Assembly: GCF_025526975.1 (NCBI RefSeq)
Contig: NW_026515698.1
Span: 248,001 to 312,000, forward strand
DNA from: Fimicolochytrium jonesii
Taxonomy: Eukaryota
Direction of reading: 5' to 3'
Length of the DNA stretch: 64,000 nt
Shown here piece after piece: positions 11,650-59,236 of the stretch. A program made the translations under genes and the position numbers. Position 1 is the stretch's first letter. Each line of letters opens with the position of its first letter. Below the pieces are notes generated by a model. That model worked only from the letters and a program-made list of their open reading frames with translations. It was not told the DNA's origin and searched no databases.

Positions 11650-12500
11650 TGAGGTATATAGGGACGATAGCAACGGTGGCGATGGTGAATGGAGTAAACA
11701 AAGGGAGCGAACAGCCCCCAGAAAGATCCCCAGCGGCCCATTTTCGTAGGGAATGGATGAGACGCTTGTCCTTTCTCGCAAGATGCGCGAACATCCTTGC
11801 AACGCAATCGTGGATGCGAGGAAGAACGGCTGACCGTGTCAAGGTGTGGAACTCGCAGATCTTCTTGGGCGGTCTGTGGGAGTGGAAGATCAAGTGGATT
11901 TCTTACAGTCGAGGATTGGGAAGGATATGGATGGGCTGAAGCGTGAGCCAATCATTGGAGTTGATAAAAACACACAGCTCCTGTTCATGTTCCTTCCTGT
12001 TCTCATTGGCCCCAAATGGCAGCATCAACTCGGAGTGACTGCTCAAGCATACCTCCAGATACTGGCCGACAAGGACGAGGGGGATCTGGAAGCCCCTCAA
12101 TCCGACATCCGCCATCTACGACTATGGTTTCTGGTAGAAAGGCTTCTTCCCACTTTGGGATGTGGCAGATGCAGAAAGCGGATGTTATGGTATCATGCAA
12201 ATGCACCGGTTGTCTACAACGTTAACTGGTTCCTCAGAGAGACATTGCTGCTCTTGGTTCAGTTCCTCACTGACGCCCGTCCCAGGCCATGTCACATCAT
12301 CTCAAACTTTTCTAGGGCCAGCACGGATCTCACCTTTCTGCGGTGATATCCTCCCAATGCACAACCAGGCCTTGGAGCACTGTGTTGAGCAATGGGAGAA
12401 AAAGGAGACAGGCTACTGCTACGCATTCCTGATAACATGCTGTTCAAACTCGACCTGGAAGCGTTTGAGAACTTCCACCAGAACGAGTTGACAAACGATC
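11650..12500 (+). pseudogene. Decayed TET/JBP-like 2OG-Fe(II) dioxygenase copy, internally deleted
   Basis: Fragments IIGVDKNTQLLFMFLPVLIG, HFGMWQ, VNWFLRETL and GDILPMHNQALEHCVE match the 56.7-58.2 kb copy across different frames. Confidence 0.6.
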
Positions 12501-28764: not shown

Positions 28765-31700
28765 TGCCTTTGAATGGAATGCGAGTGGGGGGTGCTGGAG
28801 GGAGGCCGGGTGCAGGGAGGGAGGGAAGGGGCATGGATGGATGGGCCGCTATTGTTTGGGGTAGGCGGTATGGCTTTGTTGATATGTATGCAAGGAGAAA
28901 AAGCCAGGGCAAGCAACGGGACACCTTCTGGCCAGCAACGATGAACGCGTGTGTCACATCGCACGGGGCGCCGAATGAAATACTTTGTGAATTTGCATAT
29001 ATTGCCATGTGCCGGTGGGAACACAGGCGCCGCGTTGGTGCAACTCATGCCGGCATTCGCAATACGGTAGTGTGGACGGGCACTTGGACGGATGCATCAT
29101 TCAACCTGGTCTCCCAGACTGCGTGCTGCCTCCATGTGTACTTTTGCATGACATCACGATGTCCGCGCCTTGCATTTGTCCCTGGTTACGTCCAAATCTC
29201 GTTCATTTCCCAAGACCTAACCCCCTCTCCTATTCGAAGACTTCATAAGACAGTCCTTCTCCGAATCATCCCAGTCGTACATTCGTAGGAGTGCATTCTA
29301 AAAGGCCCAAGACAAGAAATTTGGATCTACGGATCTAATGATACTTTTCCCAACTGAAAAATTCGTGGTATAAGAAGGAAGCAGACCGACAACTCCGGTT
29401 CGTTTAGTCCGTATGCAAGGGTTTTTGCCGATGCGGACAACCGAAGGACCTTGAAGTGCAGATGGATGTGGTTTCATGCAGGGGCAGGGCGAAGTGCAGA
29501 TGGATGTGTGTTTCATACGGGGCGAGAGCGAAGAGACGAAGGTCGCCTCCCCACTCATCCACCCACCCGCGCCTCTCCGAACGCCAGATCACTTCCCCAC
29601 TCTCGACCATCGGTGTCAGAAAGCCAACCAGCGATCGCAATATTGTTGCTCGACAAGATAATGCAGTGGTCCACGCAAATACTGCAATTGGCTGCTTCCC
29701 CTTCCGACCCTCACCCTCCATTTTTGACAACTTTTGACAGTCCGCTCATGGAAATGTTCATCACGTCATCAGCGGTGTTTACGCTGGGCTGAGTGAAAAC
29801 GAGCCGTGAGGCGCCTCGGGGAACGTGTTGGGCCAGCGTTGACTTGATAAAAGCAGCGATGTGCCCATCATTTTCGGCGAGAATCCTCACGTCCCGTTTT
29901 CATCTACCGTTGTCGTTGACGCTTGTGCGCATCGTTCATCGCTGCGGTACTCCTCGTCGCTGTTCCTGGTCCGGCCAACTGTCGACGGATTCCACGCCTC
30001 CCCCACCACAGCCTGGAGGATCAGCTCGGGTTAGGATCAACTCGGGAAGACATCTACCGCCGCTCGGAGGGTCCAAGCAACAACTGCGATGTTGGCCCGC
30101 GACGGGAAACTTACTGAATCATTGCGACAGACGAGCTCATCGCAAGGCAGTTCCGGGAGGAACTTGCGCGGAACTCAGTCAAAGGCGCAAAAGAACGGTA
30201 TCCATGGCTCTCAAGCCCGGAGCGACAGAAGGCCGCCGTTTCCACACCAAGGCAACCCGTCGTCTGGCCGATGGATGGCAACATGCGCAACACCAGTACA
30301 TTGCCTGTTCCTTCGCCGCATGTGAGGACGATGCAGACGGGGAAGCATCAGAAAAGAAACACATCTGACAATGACTTATCAATGGCCTGGACCGTGCCTA
30401 CACACTTCCACGCTGTCCATCTTCACCGCTATCCGCCACTTCCAAGCGTGCAGATTAACCCACGGCGTCCGTCGTCCGCGGCATCGACTCGGTCGGTCGG
30501 AAGCCGAAGCATCCCACTCCACGAACAAAGTGGCTTCCCCTGCCCCCCCTACCCGTTACCCGGCTGCGCTCTTCACTACGCATGTCCGGAAAGGGCCTCA
30601 ACAACGCAATTCATACCTTCATCGGTCTTTCGCACGCTTCTCCAAACGACTACTACCTGGCCGTCGTCACCAAAGATGATACGTACTTCGATCAACAGCC
30701 AGGGGCATATGACTGCAGAGGATCCAGCTCCGTTCTTCGACACACTCTTCAACAGGCCGGCGTCGTCTTGCAACATGTCGATACCGGTCTCCACGGCGCC
30801 TTACAAGCCGATTATCCGAACGATCACTTGTTCATTGACTTCGGTAAAAGTGTAGGACCCATTCGGTTTGTGAAAGGGACTGCAGCGGAAATTCCGGGAA
30901 TGTTTTTGATGCGATGGTTATAGACTTTTTGTTTTCGATGGCACCACGCTCTCGGCCTTTCGCAAGCTAACGACAAATGCCTGGTGGTGTCGTCACCGAG
31001 ACGCAGTTCGACTTCTCCCGGTCCCTCTTCCGCTTCTGACATGGACAAATCAAGTCACCGACCATCGCATGAGAAATTGTTGGTTCTCTTATGCTTGTCT
31101 TTGCTGTCTCGCCGTACTTCGACCGACCAGCAGTCAAGGCGGCTTGGCTCTATCGATCTCAAAAACTCCACCAAGAGGGACATGACGATCAGGCCAACAT
31201 GGGCACGGCGAGCGTCGGCGACTCGGCGACGGCGACCCCAAGAAAGCAAGCTGCACGACCCGCACAGCCACAGGTCCCTCGACCTCGGCACACAGGGGGA
31301 TCAAGGAATGCGCCGCCCCTGTACAACTCATGAAAACTACCATACACAAACGCGCTGTGGCTCCCGGTAACGACTTGCTTCCCCACCTCAGCAGCATCCC
31401 TTGCCTAGGAGATGTCCTGGGTCACAGCAGAGCTCAACGGAATCGCAAAGGCTGTTGCTACGACCGAGCGATTTCCGGCGATGGGTCGCACCGACAAAAC
31501 CGGCTCCTCTTCGCTCCTCGTCGCCGAAGGGCATGACTCCCTCGCCGCCTACCTCTTCTTTCCTTCGCAGGAACAAGGACAAGGCCGTGAGCGACAAGCC
31601 AATCGCCAGACTTCCTAGACGACTCCCCTATGGACATACAAGTCGTGCCGGTCTTTTAACACCGCGCGGACGGGATCCGCCTGGAGGACCGAAAGGCCCT

Positions 31701-43358: not shown

Positions 43359-44758
43359 ATGGAGCTATCAACCATAGGCCTCCAGTGCTCCGCTCAACTC
43401 TGCAACAGGCTAGGTAACACACTCCCCCCCCCCCTCCCCTCCCCTCCCCTCTCTGACCTCTTCCTAACACACACCCTCCTGCAATCTTCGTATTCTAGAC
43501 TTCCTTCCGTTCAAATGTAGCGCTTGTCTGTTCGTCTTCTGGTACGTATGGGCGCGAGGGTTACGACTTTCTCCGCTCTTGCTTGGTGGGGAGACGCATG
43601 TCGGGTGGTTTGTAACCCAGCGAGTGTTTTTTTTTGGCAGTCTGGAGCATAGGACGCCCTCGTCGCATGCATGCGCCAAATGGACCGAGAAGGACGTATG
43701 TGCTGCGTTTATTCATGAATGAAGGGAAGATCCAGGGGACCTGGAGCGGAATCTCATCAGCCCCCTCGCTCCCGCCCGCAAAGGCGTAACAGAAACACCT
43801 CCCCGTCTGCCCTCTCTGCTCAAACATCCTGTCCTCCACCCCCGGTGTATCCGACACCGATATCGTAAGAACAGCCAACTCATCCCATTTTTGGCTTCAC
43901 GCCCTCCGTGCTTTTTTGCTTATTTCCCGATGTTTATCTATCGAACAGTTGAACGCCCACCAATCATCAAAATGCACCACGCACATCACACCCACGAAAC
44001 CGTCCGAGAAGATCACATGTGGGATGCATGGATGTGGGAAGAGGGAGTTGTGGGGGGTCAAATGTCGGAAATGCAGCCATGCTTTTTGTTTACAGTATGC
44101 ATTCCCACCCCCCCCCGTTTTGCTATCACTGTGAAGCTGACTTTTTGTTGTTGTATCGTGTGCAGACATAGACACCCCTCCGCACACGCATGCACAGTCC
44201 TCGCCCGCGAACTGACCGTGAAGAAGGAAAAGGACGACGCGTTGGCGGGCGTGACGGGGACGAAGCGGACGGGGGGGACGAAAGTAGGGGGGGCGTCGGA
44301 TGCATCGGGCAAGAAAACGAAATTGAGCCCGGCTGTCGAGTTGATGAGGCTCAAGATGCACGCCAAGGTGAATCGTCCTCATTCTCAAACGCAGGCGACA
44401 TCCCCCACAACTGACCACTAAAGCTGTGACAAAACCCGCACAGGGCGACGCATCCATCCCCGTCCCATCCCGCACATACCTGTCGATCACATCCACAACC
44501 GAGCCCGCCCTCTCCACCCCGACACCCATGTTCTTTCATAAAGACTGGACGGTTGGGCGGTGTGTGGATTATATCGCCAGCGCACTCAAGATTACCAACG
44601 TCAACAATACCGGGAATAGAGAGAGTTTGCTTGCGCTCTATGACGCGGAGGGGCGGAGGCTGGGGATGGGGGAGAGTGTGGGGACGGTGGGAAGTGGGAG
44701 GGGGGTGAGGTTGGAGAGGGGGGTGATGGAGAGTGTTGATGTCGAGACAACACCGTGA
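43359..44758 (+). CDS. AN1-type zinc finger protein (ZFAND1/Cuz1-like)
   Basis: MELSTIGLQCS..CNRLDFLPFKC, a second AN1 finger, ELMRLKMHAKGDASIP, FFHKDWTVGRCVDYIA. Confidence 0.85.
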
Positions 44759-44907
44759 GAGAATCACTCCATCGAATGTACTGTACGTGAAGTGTGAGCG
44801 AAACTTTGTGTACAAGTTGCCATCATCGGCGACGCCTCAGGCAGAGGTACAATGATGTGGATGGCAGATAACCACCACGGAAAATAGTATGGGGTGAAAA
44901 TTCTAGA

Positions 44908-47250
44908 CTACCGGTTACGGGAGAATGCGTCTGGTCTGTGGCCATTGCCAAGCACCACCGAGCGCACAATCAAGAGAAAATTCTTGGTGCTTAGGACGTC
45001 CCGATTGTGCACTTTCATCCGTAGTCGTTGTGGTCGTCTTCCAGGAATCTCAAATGGCGTCCAGTCTTGGTTGATACATTCGGGGTTGGGGCAACCCACC
45101 AATCCATGGACGTATTCCATTCTTCCCTTTCTAGCTTGCCATGGTCGAGATGACAGCCGCTGTCGGATGTTTTTCTTCACACGGCCGTGGCAGTCGGGGC
45201 ACACGGACGAAGTTCAATACTCATCCAGCAAGTAGGATGGAATGCTGTTTCTCGCAAAGAGTGTGCAAAATCTGTTCCATGATGAGTTAGCATAATGGAA
45301 TACATAGTAGATACCACCAATCATGGTCACTCACCCCTTGATCTTCGATGACTCCTGAAAGCGCATCGTTTTCCCAGCATCGCTCCAATCACCCAAGATG
45401 ACCAAAAAATTCTTTCCATACTGGCGTCGCATGTTCTTAATGAGCTTGCTCTCAGACTTTTGCCGCAGTGAGAACGCCTTGAACCTGCGAGCGACTTGAA
45501 TCTCATCCTGGTAAAACTCATCCAGGGCGGGATCTGGGATATGGATGGATGTCAGCCCATGTATTACTAAATTTGAAGACAGCGCATAATACATCATACC
45601 TGCATGTATGTGATCCACAATGAGCGCTGAGAACGCCTCCATCTTCATGCTCTTGTGCGACGGAATATGTGATTCCATCTCAGCGACGCCGGCATTGATC
45701 TTTCGCTCTGTCATGTCTCTTTGAAAGAACCGAGACTTTGTCTCTACCGCCCGTTGATTGGATGTGTATCTGGTACGGGGTGGCGTTTTGTGAGAATGTG
45801 GCAACGGATGGTGGGGACGGTAAGGGGGGGGATGGTGGGGACGGGGACAAGGACAGGGTTGGCCTCAATACCGTCATGCAGGTCATCAACATGGGCCACG
45901 CGACGAGCGATATGATGCGCGACGGCGACGAGCAAACCAACCGCGGGCGCTCCCTCATCGGCGGCGTTCCCATCGACGGCTCCGTGCTTGTCCAACTCTA
46001 TCAACGAACTCCTCGCCCAGATCCGCGACGGTGGCAACCGCTACAACATGATTAGCGCCACCGAGGCCCTCGTTGCCAACATGGCTGCGGAAGCCGTCAA
46101 CGCCGTCTGGACCAACTTCGTTGCCCGTGTCCGCAAACAGGGGAACCACCCCTTCCAAATCAACGTCCGCAAACACCTCCGCAGCGTTGGGGCGGGGCGG
46201 GGGGGGGGGGGGGAGGGGGGGGGGGGGGGGACAGCAGGGCAGTAGTAATCAACTGAAACGTACCGAAATGGGCGCTCCTTCTCCATGTCTCGACAGAACA
46301 GGAGGTCACGCTTGCCCGGATCAATGCAGACGATGTTTGGAGCCTCCCTTAATTCGTCAATGTGGTGCTCAAAATACTGCTGCTTGACTTCTTCCTGCAT
46401 TTGGGCCTTGCTGCGCTTCCGGGCCCGATACGCGAACTTGAGCCCTGGCTTCTTGAAGTGGATGGTAACGGAATACCCGTCGGTGCTAATTGACCCATCG
46501 AACTTGAGACCAAGCTTCTTTCGATGTTTGAAGACCTTGTCCTATAACCCGTCGTTCAGCAGGGCAATCGAAATAAGCGCAGAAGGGTACAGACTTAACT
46601 TACATTCACATTGAGAAACTGCCCCCACAGCTCCCGCTTGCGTTCATCGGTGAACTTCCCCATGCAAGATTGGCTCAAGCTCAGAATATGATTGCCTAAG
46701 ATCATCGTGTCGATCCTAACAGATGACTGGATTCGAGATTTGCGCAGCGGGATAGCCGAAAACAGCCGCATTCTACGGCGCTCATAAAGGCGTGAGAGCT
46801 CACAATAGGCACCTGTGATGAGGCAGGTGCGGACCATGATTAGACAAAAGAGGAAGCCGCGCGGGGGGGGGGGGGGGGGGGGGGGGAGGGGGAGGGGGGG
46901 GGCCGGCTGGAAAAAAACTAACTCACCTAAATATGGCATTGCATTCACCGCAAGGCTGTATGCAAGTGGTTCATCCTGGGGAGGAAACAGAGCCCATAAC
47001 TCATTGAGGAGAGTCTGCTCAGGTCGTGTGAGGCGGTCAAACTCCTCTTCAGTTGGGTACTCTTCAAATGTTGCAAACTTTATGAATTGACGGACACGCC
47101 GGTAATACTGTTGGCGCTGCGCTCGGCTGACTCCGGCTCTCTGAAGATGCAGTACGACTTCTTTCAAGCCAATCCTTTCATTGACGTAGCGCAGAAGCAT
47201 TTGCAGAAAATGCTCTTGTACGTTAACTTTCAGGTTGGTGAAGATGACAT
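44908..47250 (-). pseudogene. Fanzor1-type (eukaryotic TnpB-like) RuvC nuclease gene with five introns; 5'-truncated, one premature stop
   Basis: Spliced product includes FSAIPLRKSRIQSSVRIDT, ISTDGYSV, RuvC-I VCIDPGKRDLLFC, FRYTSNQR, ILGDWS, LLDEY*TSSVCPDC, CPNPEC and RuvC-III HNRDVLSTKN. Introns at 46813-46926, 46542-46603, 45770-46263, 45534-45599 and 45272-45334 all restore frame. Confidence 0.88.
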
Positions 47251-47271
47251 CAAAGAACCCTCCACGGAACA

Positions 47272-47315
47272 GGGTTTTCCCAAGGTCCAGCCGCAGTAAA
47301 GCCCCAGCGACTGGA
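47272..47315 (+). promoter_or_regulatory. Gag-pol -1 programmed ribosomal frameshift signal
   Basis: Slippery heptamer G GGT TTT (47272-47278) in gag phase, 7-nt spacer, then stem TCCAGCCGC..GCGACTGGA. The gag frame stops at 47299; the -1 frame is open into pol. Confidence 0.75.
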
Positions 47316-50300
47316 GAACACACACTCCTCCGGGCCTCCTAACCTTGCAGCTCCTGCAACGGAAGAGGCCACCCCCCTGGTTCCCGACTCCGTTAAATCC
47401 AACACAACCCTCCTAGCCGCCGCCCATGTCGAAAACTCCGAAATTAACCCACGCGCCATGCTTGCGCTGGGTCCTGCCGAACCCTTCAACTACCCCGTTA
47501 CCATCATGGTATCATCCAGCCGCGCCCCGATACCTACCTCAGCCATGATCGACAATGGTGCCCTGTCCTGCTTCATCGACAGAGACTTTGCCCGCAAACA
47601 CCGCATCGCCCTAGTCCCGCATCAGCGTCCACTGACAATCGAACTCGTTGACGGTCAACCCAGCTCTGCTGGGCCAATCACCCATCACACCCAACCAGTA
47701 GGCATGTGGGTTGACAACCACTTTGAAGAACTCGTCTTCCATGTCACCAAATCACCCCACGCTCCAATCCTCCTTGGTCTCCCCTGGCTCCGCCTCCACG
47801 ACGTTAACCTTGACTTCAAGAACCTTTCGGTCGGTTCCCGTTGCGACTGTCAGTACCATGAATTCGCAAATTGGCACCGCTCCCCGGCACCCCCGAGCCC
47901 AGCACCCGCCAGATCTCCCGAGCCCTTGATCCGCATCCCCCAGGATGAAGTCCCCATCAACAAAACATGGTCGATCCCAGTACCCAAGGTATCTCGCTCC
48001 AGCACCCCAGAACTGGCTCCCACGCCGCTCCGAGTCTCGTTCATCTCCGCCCCAGCCTTCCGGGTCGCAGCAAGGCATGACCAGGTCTCTGTCGCCTACG
48101 CCAACCCTGCAAAACCCGAGCTCCCGGCCTCACCTAGCCCCAGTACCCTCCCAACAACCGAGAAAGACATCAAAGACTTCCTGCCCCCCGCATATCAAGA
48201 TTTCGCCGACGTTTTCGAAAAGAAAAATGTTGACACTCTCCCTGAGCACCGGCCCTACAACTGTCCTATCGACCTGGAAGAAGACAAGCAGTCACCTCTT
48301 GGCCCGATCTACAGCCTCAGCAAACCAGAAATGAAAGCACTCTGCGAATACCTCGAAGAAAACCTCGCCAAAGGATTCATCAAACCCTCAAAGTCCCCTG
48401 CCGGTGCGCCAGTCTTATTTGTGAAGAAAAAGGACGGTTCTCTCCGCCTCTGCGTCGATTATCGAGGCCTGAAGAGCATCACGGTGAAGAATTGCTACCA
48501 CCTGCCCCTGATCAACGGTATCATGGACCGTTTGCGCGGTGCCCGCCATCTCACCAAGATCGACCTCCGCGGCGCTTACAACCTCTTACGCATGCGCCCG
48601 GGCGATGAATGGAAGACCGCCTTCCGCTGCCGCTACGGCCTATTCGAATACAATATCATGCCCTTTGGACTCAGCAATGCTCCTGGCGTTTTCCAGTACC
48701 TGATGAACGACATCTTCCACGACATTCTCGATGTGTTTGTTTTTGTCTACCTTGATGATATCCTGATATTCTCCAAGAACCCCGAAGATCACCCCAAGCA
48801 CGTCCGCGAAGTCTTGTCCCGCCTCCGCCAGCATGGGTTGTACGCCAACCCGAGAAGTGCGAATTCAACCGTGAATCTGTCGAGTTCCTAGGCTTCATCA
48901 TCTCCGAGAAAGGCATCCAAATGGACCCCAAGAAGATCGCTGCCATCACGGATTGGGAACCTCCCAAGAATGTCAAAGGCGTCCAGCGCTTCCTCGGCTT
49001 TGCCAACTTCTATCGCCGATTCATCCAAGGTTATTCCAAGATCGCTACCCCGCTCACAGCCCTGACCCGGAAAGACATCCCGTACGCCTGGACGCCCGCC
49101 GCAAACACCGCCTTCGAGAACCTGAAGAAATCATTCACCACCGCCCCCATCCTTGCTCACCCTGACCCAGAGAAGCCCTTTGTCGTCGAAACTGACGCCC
49201 CCGACTTCGCCTCTGGCGCAGTTCTCCTCCAACCTGACCAGGACAATCAGCTCCACCCTGTGGCCTTCCACTCTCGCAAATTCACGGCCGAAGAGATCAA
49301 CTACGAGATCTACGACAAGGAACTTCTGGCCATCCAAGACTCCTTTGCCCAGTGGCGACACCATCTCATTGGCGCCCGTCACAAGATCACCGTTTACTCC
49401 GACCACAAAAACCTTCAGTACTTCATGACCACCCGCACCCTGAACCGCCGCCAAGCCCGCTGGTCGATATTCTTCTCGGATTTTGACTTTGTCATTACCT
49501 ATCGCCCCGGTTCCCAGCAGCACCAAGCCGATGCCCTCTCCCGACGCTCGAACATGAGCTAAAGAGGGGGAAGAAGCGTTCCGCTCCCAGGCGACCACAA
49601 TTTTGACTCCCGAACGCCTCCGACTCGCCGCGGCCTACCTCACACCCATGGATACTACGCTGCTTGACAAGATTAAGGCCGCCCAGGCCTCTGACCCCTC
49701 GCTAAGACCATCCGCAAAGAGCTCAAGATACCCCTTGCCCAACGGACCGAGGAAACCCAAGATCGTATCAAGCGGTTCTCAGATGAAGATGGGATCCTGC
49801 TGCACGATAACCTTGTCTATGTCCCCACCAATGAGCTCCGAGCTGAAGTCTGCCACGACATGCACGATACACCCCTAGCCGGCCACTTTGGGATGTCCAA
49901 GACGCTCGAACTCGCCTCCCGCAACTACTGGTGGCCCAGCCAGTGGCGCTTCGTCAAGGCCTACGTCAAGTCCTGCGATATCTGTAGCCAAGCGAAATCC
50001 AGTCGACACAAACCTTACGGCCTACTCCAGCCCAACAGTATCCCTACCCGCCCTTGGGGATCTTGGTCCCTGGACTTTATCACCGGTCTGCCTCCCGTTG
50101 ATGGGTACGACTCCATCCTGAACGTCAACTGTCGCCTCACCAAGATGGCCCACTTCATCGCCTGCAGCGAGTCAGAATCCGCCGAATCCACCGCCGACCT
50201 AGTCTTCCACAATATCATCCTGTCTCCACGGCCTCCCCGACGACATCATCTCTGACCGAGGACCCCAGTTCAAGTCCCGGTTCTGGCGTCGACTTCTCGA

Positions 50301-51190
50301 ACTCCTTGGGGCGAAAGCCAACCTCTCCTCGGCCTTCCACCCCCAGAGCGACGGCCAGACGGAACGCACCAACCAGATCCTGGAGCAGTATCTCCGATGC
50401 TTTGCAACCACCAACAGGACAACTGGAAACGGCTTCTGTTGTCCGCCGAGTTTGCCTACAACAACACCCACCAGTCCGCTTCCCAGACCACCCCCTTCTA
50501 CGCCAACAATGGTCTCCACCCCCGCTTCAGTTTCGCTGCCTCTGCTACCTCCGAATCCGTCAACCCCGCCGCTGAAGCCCGCGCTAAACAAATCAGGGAA
50601 GTCCATGAACAGCTCGTCCTTGAGCTCAAGGAAGCGCAAGATCGAATGAAGGGCTACGCTGACGCTATACGAATCCCTGGACCAAACTTCAAGCATGGTG
50701 ACCACGTCTGGCTCCTCCGAAAAAACCTCCAGACGACCCGGCCCTCTCCGAAGCTCAACCATCGCGAGATTGGGCCATTTCCCATCGTTGAAAAGATCAA
50801 TCCAGTCGCCTACCGACTCAAGCTCCCGCCTACGTACAAAATCCACGATGTCTTCCATGTCTCGCTCCTCGAACCCCGCTTCACCATCCCCGAACGACAC
50901 GAACCCGAACCCGGGCCCCAGAGACCGTTGAGGGTCAAGAAGAGTGGGTTGTTGAAGCCATACTTGACTCTCGCATCCATCGTCATCGCCTTCAGTACTT
51001 GGTCAAATGGCAGGGCTGGCCTGACTCCGAGAACACCTGGGAGCCCGTGGAACACCTCACCCATACCGACGCACTCCTCAAGGACTTCCACAGCGCGTAC
51101 CCCAACAAGCCTTCCTCTGTCCCCGGTGCCCCTCCTCCACAACCACACCAAACTCGCCGCCGCCGCCGCCGCCGCTAAAGAGAGGGGTGA

Positions 51191-51730
51191 TGTTATGGAC
51201 GACGCGCCCATACCATAAGCTTACCTACTGACAGCCGCCAATGTCAACCGCCAATGTCAAACGCCAATGTCAATGTCAATGTCAGTGTCAATGTCAGTGT
51301 CAATGTCAATGTCAATGCCACTCCCCCTCGCTCCTCTCATTTCGCCAATCCTCCCGCAATATGGCCACTCCTCCTCTCTCCTCTCATTTCGGCAATCCCC
51401 CCTCGGCTTCTCCACACTCCCCACTACTTCTCCATAGCCAGCAGCTGTAGCAATGCTCTCTACGCTCGCCACGCACGCTCTAGGAGCATAGCTGGCGCCC
51501 CCCCCCAGTCCCCTCTTGTTGTTGTTGTTCTCTGGCCTGCTGGGTTGCCTATCTATAAATAGCCGGCCTCTCTTCGTCCATTCCCTTCCTCCCCAGCAGA
51601 TCAACACCAGTTCTTCTCATCTCCTGTTCTAGTCCTTGTTTCTTGTTTCGCCAATACAATCTCTTGTCGCCTATCACTCTCGCCTTGTCTTCTCTACTTC
51701 GTTTTCGCCTCAGTCTTCGAGATCATAACA
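51191..51730 (+). repeat. 3' LTR (540 bp) of the Gypsy element
   Basis: Follows the polypurine tract AAAGAGAGGGGTGA. Starts TGTTATG and ends CATAACA (7-bp inverted termini). TATAAA near 51554 and a (CAATGT)n microsatellite at about 51239-51316. Confidence 0.9.
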
Positions 51731-53000
51731 CGCTGACCATGTCTGCAATTGCTTCGGGCAAGTGGCGATGGACAGACGGTGGGAACTCAAATCGCGGACG
51801 TGATTGCAATGGTGTCTGCACAGCGGTCGGCAGACGTATGGGCAACCGGGGGGTAACTGGAGTAACCTTCCTCCTCTTCCGCCGTGGTGTGGTTACTCCG
51901 GTGAAGATGCCACACCACAGGTGCCCCTGGAGCGCCTGGTGTGATGACATGTTGGCTGTGCTGTGCTGTGCTGGCAGGGAGGGTAGATTGATATGTATTA
52001 GGTAGTGTGAGGGATTGCCGCGGGGTAAGGGATTGCTGTTGTTACCTGGAGGTGGTTGGCGGGATGTGTACTGTTTGCAATTGCGGTGGAAGGAAGGGGG
52101 TTGGTAGGTTGGGAAGGAGAGAAGGGCCTACATCCTCCCCACTCTACAGCGTCTTTATACGTATATGAATCTCCATGTTCTTGTGCGATACAGAGTGTGG
52201 CTTGGTCCAGCGAAGAAAAAAGCCCAGCCAATGGGGGGAAGCTATACGCTTGCTTATGGGAATGGGGGAAAGCGGGGGTATGGCACTGACAGCACTGGAT
52301 CACGACAGCTCAGCGGAGTACATGTACAGTATGTTTGTACAGTACTATGTACATATACAGTATATGTACGTGACTGCGTTTGTCTCGCCGTGGCCAGAGG
52401 TGCGGTACCGAATACTTGGAATGTTATGGTGTCGGGCACTTTCTCATTCATTTGGTTGGCCACGGCTGGCCAGAGGTGCGGAGTGTGCCGGTGGAGGGTT
52501 TAGCCAGAGGTCTGGTCAGAAGTGCGCTCCAAAAGCGCACGTGAGAGATGTATCCTCACCCTCGGACTTACAGCCTTCACCCTCAGTTTTTAGCCTTCAG
52601 CACGCGTAATTGAACCCGGAAGGCTGTTATTTCACGCAAAGAAAAAGCTGTTATTTCACGCGGCAGGCGTGGACCCGGACTCTTTCTTCAAGGTCCTTTG
52701 AACGAGCAGAAAGGCCAGCGGGGCAGGCATTTCCGTTAGCAGGCATTAGCAGGCATTCAGGGACATTCCCTTGCAGCAGGCATTATTATCACCTGTACTC
52801 TACTCCAGACCGCTTCAAGTTATTTCAAGGTAGTGGGATGTGCTTTCTCGCCCCCCGATCCCTACCCACTCAGTCTCACTCTCACTCTCCCTCTCTCTCT
52901 CTTGCGCTCAGGTAACCTTGGGCATACCTCCATGCCGTGCACTCACACTTGGAAGGAACACTATAGGTGAGAATTAAAAGCCGCACACAATACCAAAACC

Positions 53001-53160
53001 GATCGCCCGAGGCAGCTCGGCATAGGAGCAGCCTCGCGATACTCTACCTTTTCGAATCACGATCGCCCGAGGCAGCTCGGCATAGGAGCAGCCTCACAAT
53101 ATGCTACCTTCTCGACTCGCGATAGCCCGAGGCAGCTCGGCATAGGAGCAGCCTCGCAAT
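53001..53160. repeat. Three-copy 60-bp tandem array with a conserved 35-bp hairpin-containing core
   Basis: GAT(C/A)GCCCGAGGCAGCTCGGCATAGGAGCAGCCTC at 53001, 53061 and 53121; CCGAG-gcag-CTCGG is an inverted repeat. Confidence 0.95.
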
Positions 53161-53532
53161 TTGTTTGCCATTCTATGTCACACACCCGCTCCATGCTCCC
53201 GCGACGAGTGGGAGCAGCTTCTCACCGATTTGACCAAGATGATTGACACAAGGGATCTCACTCGGGCTGCAGATGCTGGATTTGATGAGCGATGTTGGTG
53301 GTTTCCCCAGAGCCCCGTCGAGGCGGAGCCGTGTGAAACAGGAGGAATAAAGCGAAAAAAAAAAATGGTCGTGGCTCGAACTGTTTGAGAGTGGGTAAGG
53401 TTGCTTTCTGTTGCGATACATAGTACGTAGTTTTGCTGTTCAGTTAACACCCACGAAGCGCCAAGCGCAACAGTAGTTACCACGCCGCGCCTAGCGCGAC
53501 AGGGGTCATAATCTGAACAAACAAAGAAGTTG

Positions 53533-53604
53533 TCTGGGAGTGGGAATTGAACTCGCGACCTGCACGTCTGCAGGGAGAGCAAGATTCAACTGTGCCAAAG
53601 CGCC
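53533..53604 (-). ncRNA. tRNA-like Pol III element (pseudo-tRNA or SINE head)
   Basis: Minus strand: A-box-like TGGCACAGTTG, anticodon-loop-like CTGCAGA, B-box GTTCAATTC. The acceptor stem does not pair. Confidence 0.45.
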
Positions 53605-53796
53605 AGTGTTATCAGAATCCAATTACAGTACCAGAAGGGTGTACAGTAGGTGGCCAAAAGTCCGGGTACGATGGGTTCCCTAAGCCTGCTGCCTCAACGA
53701 CCAGCTGCCGTCCACGCACGTGATTAAGTCAGTGTCCATTGCGAGCTGCCATTGAATTGACAGCATCGACCACGGCATCAGCCACTTGAATAGAGA

Positions 53797-53875
53797 CCCT
53801 AACCCTAACCCTAACCCTACCCCTACCTTGTATTCTCAATTGAAATCAGAACTCTAACCCTAACCCTAACCCTAA
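53797..53875. repeat. Interstitial telomere-type (CCCTAA)n repeats, two short blocks
   Basis: ccctaaccctaaccctaaccctacccctacc ... ctctaaccctaaccctaaccctaa. Confidence 0.9.
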
Positions 53876-54168
53876 ATTGAATCAAGGAACTTTGTGTATA
53901 TTGGGAGAGTACCGTGCTGCACATGTAAACAATCGGCTGCTCAAACTGTAACATTCCCCACAATCTCCCACGATCCAAAAACACCAAAAAGGCGACCAAG
54001 ATGGAATCAAATGCAAACAGTAGTGTGTAAAAAGCCAAGAGAAAAACGAAAAGCGTGCGATTCTTATTCCCTTCAAAAAAGGGTGTCAAAGCAAACATGT
54101 ATAATGCCTCCCTCCCCCGTGTTACCCTCCTCCCCTCTCTAAACCCCCCTCCTCAAACGCCCCCGGGC

Positions 54169-54756
<588 letters not shown>

Positions 54757-56479: not shown

Positions 56480-58230
56480 TGTCCTCCTCCGTCTTCATGT
56501 CCTCCTCCATCTTCATCCCCGTCTTCACCTCCAGCTTCATCTTCCGGCCCTTCCTTTCCTTATCCGCCAACAACTTCTTACCCTCCTCTCCAACTCCACC
56601 TCCTTATCCTCCATCTCTATATGATGACCATTCCCTTTGCACATGGGGGGGGGGGGGGCCAGCGAATGCTAACCATCTCCTCAGCAAGCTTTCCGTCCAA
56701 CTCCCGGTTGTGAAAGTTCTTGAGAACCTTCCAACCCGAGCTCAAACACCTTCTGATAAGTAAACTGCAAGAACGCATACCGGGTGTCGGCAGGGTCCGT
56801 CGCCCACCATCTCCACAAAGTGCTCAAGAGCCTGACTGCGAATGAGCAAAATATCTCCAGGTCGATAAGGCAGCATGATGCCAAGATCGGGAAGGCACAA
56901 TCTTCCACCTTTGGAAAAAGTCCCAAAGCAGCTCATGGTGGCCCAGCTGTAAGGAATGTCGCGTTTGTCATGATGCGGTGCAGTTTGGTGGTTGGCTGCT
57001 AGAACATTCATGGCATTGACTTGGGGGCCCCTCGTACCAGCCCAGAAGTGCTTCAAATCTGGCCGAAGGTGGGTCATCGATTGAGTGAGACGGTAATGGC
57101 CAATGGGGTCAATAAGGCGAAGAGCCTCACTGAGGAGCCAGTTGATGCATTCCACACCGGGATCGCAGATGAAGTGATAGGTGTCGCACTGGGCAGGGCC
57201 CGAGTGCATGTGCGTGCAGTCATAACGTCCCCATACATAGTCTGCCACACACAGATGTGCATGGTGGCTTTTTGGCTGGTGACATCGATGGCATCCGTTG
57301 GCTGGTGGCAAGGTCAAACATCCTTTGACAGCTTCCCAAAATCCTCCTTCTGTTCCTTCTAATTCTTCACCACCTTTTTTGCCACCTTCACAAAACCCAG
57401 CTGCCACCCCTGCCCAATGATTCCAGGGAGGAACATGAACAACGCCTTCCCGTCCTTGTCCACTCCAATTGACGGCACCCTCCCACTTTTGATATCGTCC
57501 ACATCCTCAATGCTCAAGTTGGTGCAGTCAGCATTCTTCGGTTTCGCAGCCAGCTCACTCAATGATAAGTGGTCAAAGATCCAAACATTGTTCTCAATGG
57601 CACGCACTACCTCATTGCAGAGGTATTCACGCATGCTATGGGAAAAGAGAACACTGGCTTCCATCTCTGGGAGAGCGGGGCCCCAAAGGATCTTCCTGTG
57701 CTTCGAAGTCTTTTGTTTTTCCTTCACATTTCCCCTATGCCGGTTCCCTCCACCGCCTTCGTAGTCGCTGTCGTTGTCATCGTCGTCATTGCCGTCTTCA
57801 TAATCGTACTCAAAGTCGCCTTCTTCAAGATCAAGGTCGAGGTGGACTTCTACCTCCTTCATACTCTGAACTCGGTCGCGACGCGGGCGAAGGCGGTTAC
57901 GGATACGGTCTTCGCCGACGTATTCGGTGTTGGAGGTGGAGATGGACATGCTGATGCACCCACCGACGCTGAAGTGCGAGCCGCCGCTGCCATTCTCGCC
58001 GCCGCCGTTGTCGTTTGCACCATTCTCCCCGCCGCCATTGCCACTCTCGCCACCGTCGCCATTCTCCCCACCATTCTCGCCACTCTCGCCGACGTCGCCG
58101 TTGGCGCTCTCGCCATTTTCCCTGCCACTCTCGCCGCCCGTTACCGTTACCACTCTCGCCGCCACTCTCGCCCACGTCGCCGTTGCCCACTTTTTCGGCT
58201 ATCTCTTTCAATTCCCAAGGCCTAACTCCC
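56480..58230 (-). pseudogene. TET/JBP-like 2OG-Fe(II) dioxygenase pseudogene
   Basis: TAPHHDKRD (HxD), FGTFSKGGRLCLPDLG, PGDILLIRSQALEHFVE (distal His), TRYAFLQFT (2OG-binding Arg strand). In-frame TAG/TGA near 57359 and 57317, plus frameshifts. Confidence 0.7.
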
Positions 58231-59236
58231 TCTCCCATTCGAGCCCGTGGGTTTGAACTACGGTTCGTTCAGTTCATATGCAAGGATTTTGGCCGATGCG
58301 GACAACCGGAGGAACTTGAAGTGTGTGTTTCATGCAGGGGCAGAGCGAAGAAGCAGGAACCTCGAATCTCGAACTGATCTTAGTCTGCTTTGTAGATCTA
58401 GCCGTTCAAAGCCGCGCACGTTTGAAGTGAAGGCGAAGGTGTTACGGCCGCAGTTAGGCTACAGGCAATGGGTGTGAACGAGGAGATGATAATGATTTTG
58501 GAGATCGGGGCCGATTGAGGCAAGAGGGTACGGCAGAGGTTGGGTTGATGGAGAACTGGAGAAATTTTGCGGGATACGAGCGGACGCTCTATGTATATAC
58601 GAATTCCGAGAAATACATAGAGCCCTCAATCTGTTGCAGTGTTTTCTCGCCCGTGCTGGACCACTGAAATGGCAAGCGCGGCAAAGCAAATGCCTCGGTG
58701 GCCATCGACGCGTCCGACACGCGTTAGGTCATGGAAATTGCCCATTGAAGAAATGCCTTTTGATGCGATCAGTATACATTTCCGAGAAGAATGTTCGTGG
58801 ACGTGGGAAGCAAATGAATTGTTACTGATGAGCTAGGTGTTAAGACCCACGTTTTTCAACCACCTCGAGCGTCTTCTCGATGCATTTGATATCATAGCGG
58901 CATCATGCGTGTGGGGCAGAACCTGTGCCTCGCCCTCAATCCGGCGGGCAATCAACTTACCAGTTTCGCTTGCGCTGGAAAGGATGCGGGACCTAGTATG
59001 CATTTACTGTGCGTTCTGTGGAATCCCAAATCAAGAAAAATGTCCTAATTGTAATCAAACTGATGTAACGTTGCCGACTAGCTAGACGAGAGGGGGGAAA
59101 GGGTTTATCTCGTAGAGTTTCCACACGGTGGTTATCATTGTGAGTGGTGGGTCTAGATTACTCCGATTAACAGGAAAATCACTACCACATGTAACCTGAA
59201 TTCAAATTGCTTAAATACTCCCATGAGTTGCGGTGC

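Follow-up and report, generated by a model that had tools for sequence, protein, structure and literature searches.

A decayed SpuFz1-clade Fanzor1 gene with introns and its sister copies in the chytrid Fimicolochytrium jonesii

Introduction

The founding case of Fanzor1 comes from the fungal order Spizellomycetales, where the Spu-1 elements of Spizellomyces punctatus encode the nuclease SpuFz1 (Bao and Jurka 2013, PMC3627910; Saito 2023, PMC10432273; PDB 8GKH and 9CEU-9CEZ). Spu-1 is multi-copy, no transposase has been seen in it, and it possesses terminal inverted repeats (TIRs) of 30-33 bp and a TA target-site duplication (TSD); Ty3 insertions within the Fz genes of this fungus are reported. 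[quoted passage not shown] A hallmark of Fanzors, according to PMC10530073 and a review, is a rearranged RuvC-II motif with Gly or Pro at the canonical site and the catalytic Glu located just ahead of a zinc finger.

We analysed a window of 64,000 nt from the genome of Fimicolochytrium jonesii, a chytrid of the same order, which contains a gene of this type. The F. jonesii family shares with Spu-1 the multiple copies, the lack of a visible transposase and a Ty3 insertion into the gene, and with SpuFz1 44-46% sequence identity, the fold, the D/E/D catalytic triad and a Glu placed seven residues ahead of the zinc finger. Unlike SpuFz1, it has at least five introns and a head of about 130 aa that is predicted to be disordered. 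Spliceosomal introns in Fanzor1 and an N-terminal NLS-like run also occur in CrFNuc of Chlamydomonas, which (Jiang 2023, PMC10530073) resides, unlike the F. jonesii family, within Helitron2 elements of a green alga; the density of introns is 3.2 per kb in the window gene as compared to up to about 9.6 in that study.

Results

Exon structure of the window gene

Six exons on the minus strand, between 47245 and 44908, join into 512 codons with one internal TGA:

47245-46927, minus: exon 1, REC region of Fanzor; homology restarts at paralog residue 248
46812-46604, minus: exon 2, with the motif PLR..IDT
46541-46264, minus: exon 3, with TDGYS and the RuvC-I Asp at 46322-46320 (SpuFz1 D383)
45769-45600, minus: exon 4, Fanzor coding
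45533-45335, minus: exon 5, with ILGDW and Gly (45393) at the canonical RuvC-II position
45271-44908, minus: exon 6, with the catalytic Glu at 45222-45220 (SpuFz1 E541), zinc finger and RuvC-III
45216-45214, minus: nonsense TGA in exon 6
45201, minus: first zinc-finger Cys, in exon 6
45000-44998, minus: RuvC-III Asp in exon 6 (SpuFz1 D606)
44910-44908, minus: natural stop of exon 6

When the exon join is read on the minus strand from 47245 (or 47293) to 44908, the two alternative frames contain 18 and 30 stops. The five introns, of 114, 62, 494, 66 and 63 nt, without exception begin with GT and end in AG, their phases agree, and in four of them a branch-site-like motif is found 19-31 nt before the 3' end. 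A publicly annotated gene, P0001 (EV422DRAFT_606826, 312 aa), which is a computed model and not RNA evidence, matches the spliced product exactly between exon 2 and the TGA and therefore has the same introns 2-5; its start falls within intron 1. The six exons are real, and the preliminary description, which had proposed six phase-consistent GT-AG exons encoding about 510 aa, was right in this respect; its motif coordinates (the Asp of IDPG, ILGDW, the Glu, the zinc finger and the Asp of NRD) were all correct on re-reading. To call the gene hidden was, in turn, an overstatement: exons 2-6 up to the stop are already part of the public annotation, if only as an unnamed gene.

Intron 3 (46263-45770) harbors a piece of a host gene:

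45861-46188, plus (antisense to Fanzor): internally deleted fragment of a guanylate-binding-protein (GBP)-like GTPase gene, inside intron 3

The fragment, which had escaped the preliminary description, is a patchwork of about 330 bp with 77% identity to F. jonesii P0221 and 60-76% to other chytrids, and its pieces derive from residues 187-368 of the chytrid GTPase; a run of 42 G adjoins it. The parent genes (P0221/P0222) encode unnamed proteins of 490-510 aa that are conserved across chytrids, and the GBP matches of the parent are weak (one out of ten above the Pfam cut-off; E 2e-4 to human GBP1). The antisense ORF of intron 3 had also been considered as a second Fanzor fragment, which was rejected since it yielded no match to the family profile and matched the GTPase gene instead; all its ESM Atlas matches remained under 0.8. 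Judged by eye, a paralog model extending into the 3' part of intron 3 diverges from the window at the insert junction, which hints weakly that only the window copy carries the insert.

Identity of the gene product

The product of the window gene is, with virtual certainty, a Fanzor1. Exon queries matched SpuFz1 (8GKH) with an E value of 1.4e-25, exon 3 with 2.9e-15 and exon 6 with 2.1e-27, and the spliced product is 46.5% identical to SpuFz1 and 88.7% identical to P0030, which at 761 aa is the most complete paralog model. P0030 in turn matches SpuFz1 over residues 129-759 (E 4.6e-149), and its AlphaFold model (mean pLDDT 77; residues 1-129 below 50 and predicted to be disordered) superposes on SpuFz1 with a TM score, normalised to the target, of 0.90-0.93, followed by PpFz1, GtFz1 and Cas12f. 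Foldseek with the same model returned E values of 1e-53 to 1e-19 for Fz1, 1e-5 for Cas12f and 6e-3 for Fz2. The homology, by sequence and structure, spans the WED, REC, RuvC and zinc-finger domains (window exons and P0030 taken together). The SpuFz1 triad D383/E541/D606 corresponds to D497/E656/D731 in P0030, all three residues are present in the exons of the window copy, and RuvC-II is rearranged, with Gly at the canonical site and the catalytic Glu seven residues ahead of the zinc finger. The assignment to Fanzor1, the kinship with SpuFz1 and the rearranged RuvC-II, all put forward in the preliminary description, are thereby borne out by homology, triad, fold and tree (see below), including the profile and structure match to SpuFz1, which was checked with P0030.

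The Mg ligand N385 of SpuFz1 is Gly in the F. jonesii proteins. PpFz1 of Parasitella parasitica and GtFz1 of Guillardia theta (Xu 2024, PMC11423790) match the fold of P0030 with target-normalised TM scores of 0.63-0.69 at 15-21% structural identity, and the Fanzor RuvC insertion domain is not evident in the F. jonesii family.

In a quick IQ-TREE search with 35 rows and a midpoint root, in which TnpB and Fz2 were not represented, the F. jonesii copies were monophyletic (SH-aLRT 100) with a Gaertneriomyces protein as sister (99), and a clade of 21 rows (99) united them with SpuFz1 and a family of Phlyctochytrium arcticum. The nearest relatives found, P0044 of Gaertneriomyces sp. JEL0708 and P0071 of P. 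arcticum, are unnamed Fanzor1 proteins of 637-660 aa; P0044 is 52-55% identical and has no long head. Six P. arcticum models fall into one 90% cluster (P0071), three of them with 660 aa. Active enzymes may be easier to obtain from this species. All 21 proteins matched by an exon 3 query belonged to F. jonesii (Spizellomycetales), and a profile search with the Fanzor family recovered 7,278 relatives at E values up to 0.001; the wider family is therefore large. No relatives were found in viral contigs, and neither the six exon pieces nor 15 homolog scans gave a match to a Fanzor/TnpB Pfam family (precomputed label: PF26935.1).

Lesions of the window copy

Upstream of exon 1, a retroelement separates the six exons from a displaced N-terminal Fanzor piece:

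51950-51731, minus: Fanzor N-terminal coding piece, ATG at 51950, 73 codons (51950-51732) plus 1 nt
51191-51730, plus: 3' LTR of a Ty3/gypsy element, 540 bp, with 7-bp inverted termini; polypurine tract at 51177-51187
47248-51190, plus: 5'-truncated pol of a chromodomain Ty3/gypsy element with protease, RT, RNase H, integrase and chromodomain; several broken frames

The preliminary description had the N-terminus as lost. Codons 1-73 are in fact present beyond the Ty3 element, with 83-94% identity to five paralogs (tblastn), and include a basic NLS-like run, PRRKRRK, in a region that is predicted to be disordered in the P0030 model. The LTR interrupts the coding sequence directly after codon 73, and 4.5 kb of Ty3 sequence lie between this piece and the six exons. 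The pol region gave clear Pfam matches (RVT_1, E 3e-31; RT_RNaseH, 2.8e-35; Integrase_H2C2, 9.4e-21; Chromo, 7.7e-18); Ty3 elements with a chromodomain are labelled chromoviruses. No 5' LTR and no gag were seen, and the LTR occurs in a single copy within the window; it contains a (CAATGT)n array at 51239-51317.

Between codon 73 and paralog residue 248 about 175 Fanzor codons are deleted, among them those for the first WED strand and for the counterparts of four out of the five residues by which SpuFz1 contacts TAM bases (R96, Q129, Q130 and N133); the equivalent of R291 is still present. The TGA, two codons past the catalytic Glu, cuts off the zinc finger and RuvC-III. An ancestral Arg at this position (DEYRTS), as had been proposed, is in line with the Arg found in 28/28 other F. 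jonesii models that cover it. With the Ty3 insertion, the deletion of about 175 codons and the TGA, the window copy has no open full-length reading frame and is almost certainly dead, that is, unable to make a nuclease. It is more decayed than supposed at the outset, when the TGA was taken as the only coding lesion; there are at least three. Inactivation as such thus stands. That it was recent is doubtful, since the window copy departs from the family majority at 42 out of 512 positions and its end branch of 0.078 is the longest among six near-complete copies (0.02-0.058 in the others).

Candidate omegaRNA and ends of the element

Downstream of the stop lies a candidate guide scaffold, which is new compared to the preliminary description, followed by a convergent host gene:

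44885-44809, minus: candidate omegaRNA scaffold of 75-77 nt, 3' end at 44811 or 44809
44372-44758, plus: last exon of a ZFAND1-like host gene (UBL_ZFAND1, E 7e-17), up to the end of its ORF

According to a published supplementary table, the omegaRNAs of SpuFz1 and PpFz1 have in common a 5' UCC, a stem of 5-7 bp and a GUURUCGC loop. This strict loop motif has no match in the window. Relaxed by one extra loop base, which was decided on once the window had been seen, the motif matches only once on both strands of the window (128 kb), at 44881, 26 nt past the stop and with a 6-bp stem; a Markov simulation puts the expectation at about 5e-4 such motifs per 150 nt, or about 2e-5 when a stem of at least 5 is also required. 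The candidate consists of a U-rich leader, UCC, stem-loop 1 with a GUUAUCUGC loop, a short linker and a long stem 2, and in the fold of the 77 nt from 44885 the leader has 7 nt, the linker after stem-loop 1 has 5 nt, and stem 2 begins at position 35. Stem-loop 1 has a z score of -3.5; the whole scaffold, at -1.85 (8/200 shuffles), beats shuffled sequences only by a modest margin. The candidate, of about 75 nt, has its leader, stem-loop 1 and stem 2 arranged as in the SpuFz1 omegaRNA, and the UCC-stem-GUUAUCGC motif is shared with the PpFz1 omegaRNAs. When ending at 44811 the scaffold has 75 nt and closes in TA, as in Spu-1. Past the scaffold, the following 15 nt of flanking DNA would serve as the guide. 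Position 20 is U, where SpuFz1 has a G pairing with C6. Motif and fold together suggest that 44885-44809 is probably the omegaRNA. No second copy of this region was found within the window, and Rfam gave no match in 44300-54200.

Among 12 metagenome loci, the strict stem-loop-1 motif was absent from 11, several of which have no 3' flank or are distant. It was present in L003 (3190-3290), just past the stop of an intronless SpuFz1-like gene.

The ZFAND1-like gene ends at 44758, and the right end of the element must therefore lie within 44759-44907 (149 nt). In contrast to Spu-1, no TIR was detectable: a comparison of the right end with 51950-54200 gave no match above the level of shuffles, and the left end may have gone missing or may be of another kind. 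The ends of the element, its TSD and the class of transposon are, therefore, not established. A 9-nt palindromic match between 52345 and 44778 was rejected as a TIR, being attributable to chance. Several further observations concern the flanks. At 52310-52370, some 400 bp upstream of the ATG, TGTAC/GTACA palindromes cluster together with an inverted repeat of 21 nt; TGTACA likewise terminates the candidate right end, a match at chance level. Further upstream of the Fanzor start, 53000-53160 and 53789-53882 contain 2.7 copies of a 60-nt tandem repeat and short (CCCTAA)n runs that resemble telomeres. The element is located between two AN1 zinc-finger host genes, the ZFAND1-like gene (43468-44758, plus) and a ubiquitin-AN1 gene (54169-54756, minus). 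Beyond these, 56742-58350 (minus) shows a weak match to the Tet_JBP oxygenase (E 0.01, below the cut-off), an adjoining ORF resembles 11834-12346 by eye, and repeats of 68 and 30 nt recur in 29391-29534; the three regions are possibly remains of a decayed transposon family carrying TET/JBP.

Sister copies in the F. jonesii genome

The genome contains 42 unnamed gene models of this Fanzor1 family on at least 26 contigs, told apart by their lengths, a dispersal resembling that of transposons, and the family is uncharacterised, as the preliminary description had thought possible. The count leaves out P0042 (51 aa, unrelated sequence), and as some loci are split into two models there are fewer than 42 loci. 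The median identity among paralogs is 88%.

Several mis-spliced models retain intron text (intron 1 in P0016, intron 3 in P0007, intron 4 in P0017 and P0021, intron 5 in P0015), and P0010 and P0013 skip residues right at intron 2, both partly judged by eye. As the models do so at identical junctions, we infer that the introns are shared and that the copies multiplied as DNA with introns in place. SpuFz1 is a single ORF, and the metagenome relatives L001-L003 align without intron-sized gaps; intron gain is therefore the parsimonious reading, and as the checkable relatives (SpuFz1, L001-L003) are intronless, the gain would be datable within one fungal order.

Among the positions equivalent to SpuFz1 TAM contacts, Q129, Q130, R291 and Y345 are kept in the family, N133 is replaced by Ala, and the R96 column is poorly aligned, so that a change there is possible at most. 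Given the Ala at N133, the TAM may differ from CATA. One model, P0014, fuses a Fanzor fragment to a weak tyrosine-recombinase domain (E 5.6e-4, below the cut-off); rather than a partner transposase, the recombinase part more likely represents an element that lies next to the Fanzor fragment or was inserted there.

Discussion

We consider it very probable that the window contains a dead copy of an intron-containing Fanzor1 of the SpuFz1 clade, which belongs to a multi-copy F. jonesii family likely spreading as a DNA transposon. By analogy to SpuFz1, an intact copy would be spliced and translated into a nuclear protein of about 760 aa, composed of a disordered NLS-bearing head of 130 aa and a SpuFz1-like core. 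This protein would bind the 75-77-nt omegaRNA from the right end of the element, the last 15 nt or so of which would be a guide copied from flanking DNA, and would cleave double-stranded DNA at TAM plus guide, i.e. at the vacated donor site, where the element might then be restored by homing. According to a review, homing has been established for TnpB and IscB of bacteria and not for Fanzor1, and for the F. jonesii family it is proposed on this basis. As no transposase was seen in the window copy, one would have to act in trans. It might further be speculated from the Spu-1 ghosts that the omegaRNA of the window copy could load onto sister proteins.

A reading that must be taken seriously, although we place it somewhat below an even chance, is that the entire F. 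jonesii family is extinct and consists of decaying relics of a past burst, with no DNA cutting left. Only P0030 and P0031, out of 42 models, have the whole core and all three catalytic residues, and both are altered at conserved positions (E329D and T659K in P0030, E265K and R458Q in P0031). Furthermore, 59 out of 67 substitutions away from Arg lead to Cys, His, Trp or Gln, the pattern expected of CpG decay. The exons, however, are barely depleted in CpG (observed/expected 0.91), so that methylation-driven decay is only a hint. Against extinction also speak the retention of D/E/D in 18 of the 42 models, pairs of copies on different contigs with up to 97% identity, and P0004 (563 aa), which does not depart from the family at any conserved column and, having a late start, may merely be annotated short. 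The intron-bearing CrFNuc-1 showed no cleavage in Jiang 2023 (PMC10530073), which would be in line with extinction. Some of the dozens of sister copies may still work; from the sequences, we see the prediction that at least one is active as evenly balanced between true and false.

Two further explanations concern the window copy itself. The six exons and the N-terminal piece at 51950 might stem from two different Fanzor copies that were joined by a deletion through the Ty3 element, as about 175 Fanzor codons are absent along with the Ty3 5' LTR and gag, and paralog models do cluster, for example three on one contig of 615,915 bp. Both pieces, however, lie on the same strand in the order of the gene with no residues duplicated, and one insertion and one adjacent deletion suffice, with Ty3 insertions into Fz genes already reported from S. 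punctatus; we hence regard such a chimera as unlikely. Highly improbable, finally, is a domesticated, catalytically dead guide-binding protein of 312 aa. A gene of this length is called by the public annotation, and introns 2-5 retain intact splice sites; the model nevertheless lacks the N-terminal strand of WED, most TAM-reading positions, RuvC-III and the zinc finger, which in SpuFz1 holds stem-loop 1, it starts within intron 1, and no other near-complete copy has as long a branch. A single dead Fanzor1 copy, broken by insertion, deletion and a nonsense codon, is thus the reading that we prefer.

With regard to the family as a whole, it might be hypothesized, tentatively and with considerable doubt, that the F. 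jonesii lineage is still active and recently expanded, that it gained at least five introns and the disordered 130-aa head after its split from intronless SpuFz1-like ancestors, and that it uses an omegaRNA of 75-77 nt, a non-CATA TAM and an element devoid of Spu-1-type terminal repeats. If true, this would provide an intron-bearing Fanzor near a solved structure that is directly testable, and a new TAM for the SpuFz1 scaffold.

Fanzors, their introns (PMC10530073) and Ty3 insertions into them were known before, and the F. jonesii family does not represent a system of a new kind. What had not been reported is a Fanzor1 family with multiple copies and introns in a clade whose checkable members are intronless. 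The family was not found among the listed titles of the literature on Fimicolochytrium or in that on Fanzor and chytrids; tables outside this material could list it. In the readable supplements of Saito 2023, Fimicolochytrium or jonesii does not occur, while the control Batrachochytrium does; the Jiang 2023 supplements gave no match to Fimicolochytrium, which is uninformative as the control Spizellomyces gave none either.

Dead as it is, the copy leads to some 40 gene models of Fanzor1 that stand unannotated in the genome of a single chytrid, a soil fungus. Because of the introns, ORF-based mining would miss this family, and Pfam does not recognise it either. The identity of 44-46% to SpuFz1 makes a residue-level transfer of structure and engineering feasible, yet positions contacting the TAM differ. 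The family is also a case in which the gain of introns by a mobile nuclease gene can be dated. With dozens of copies in varied flanks, the TAM, the element ends and the guide repertoire would be obtainable by alignment alone, and the same flanks bear on the question of what mobilises Fanzor1 elements that have no transposase.
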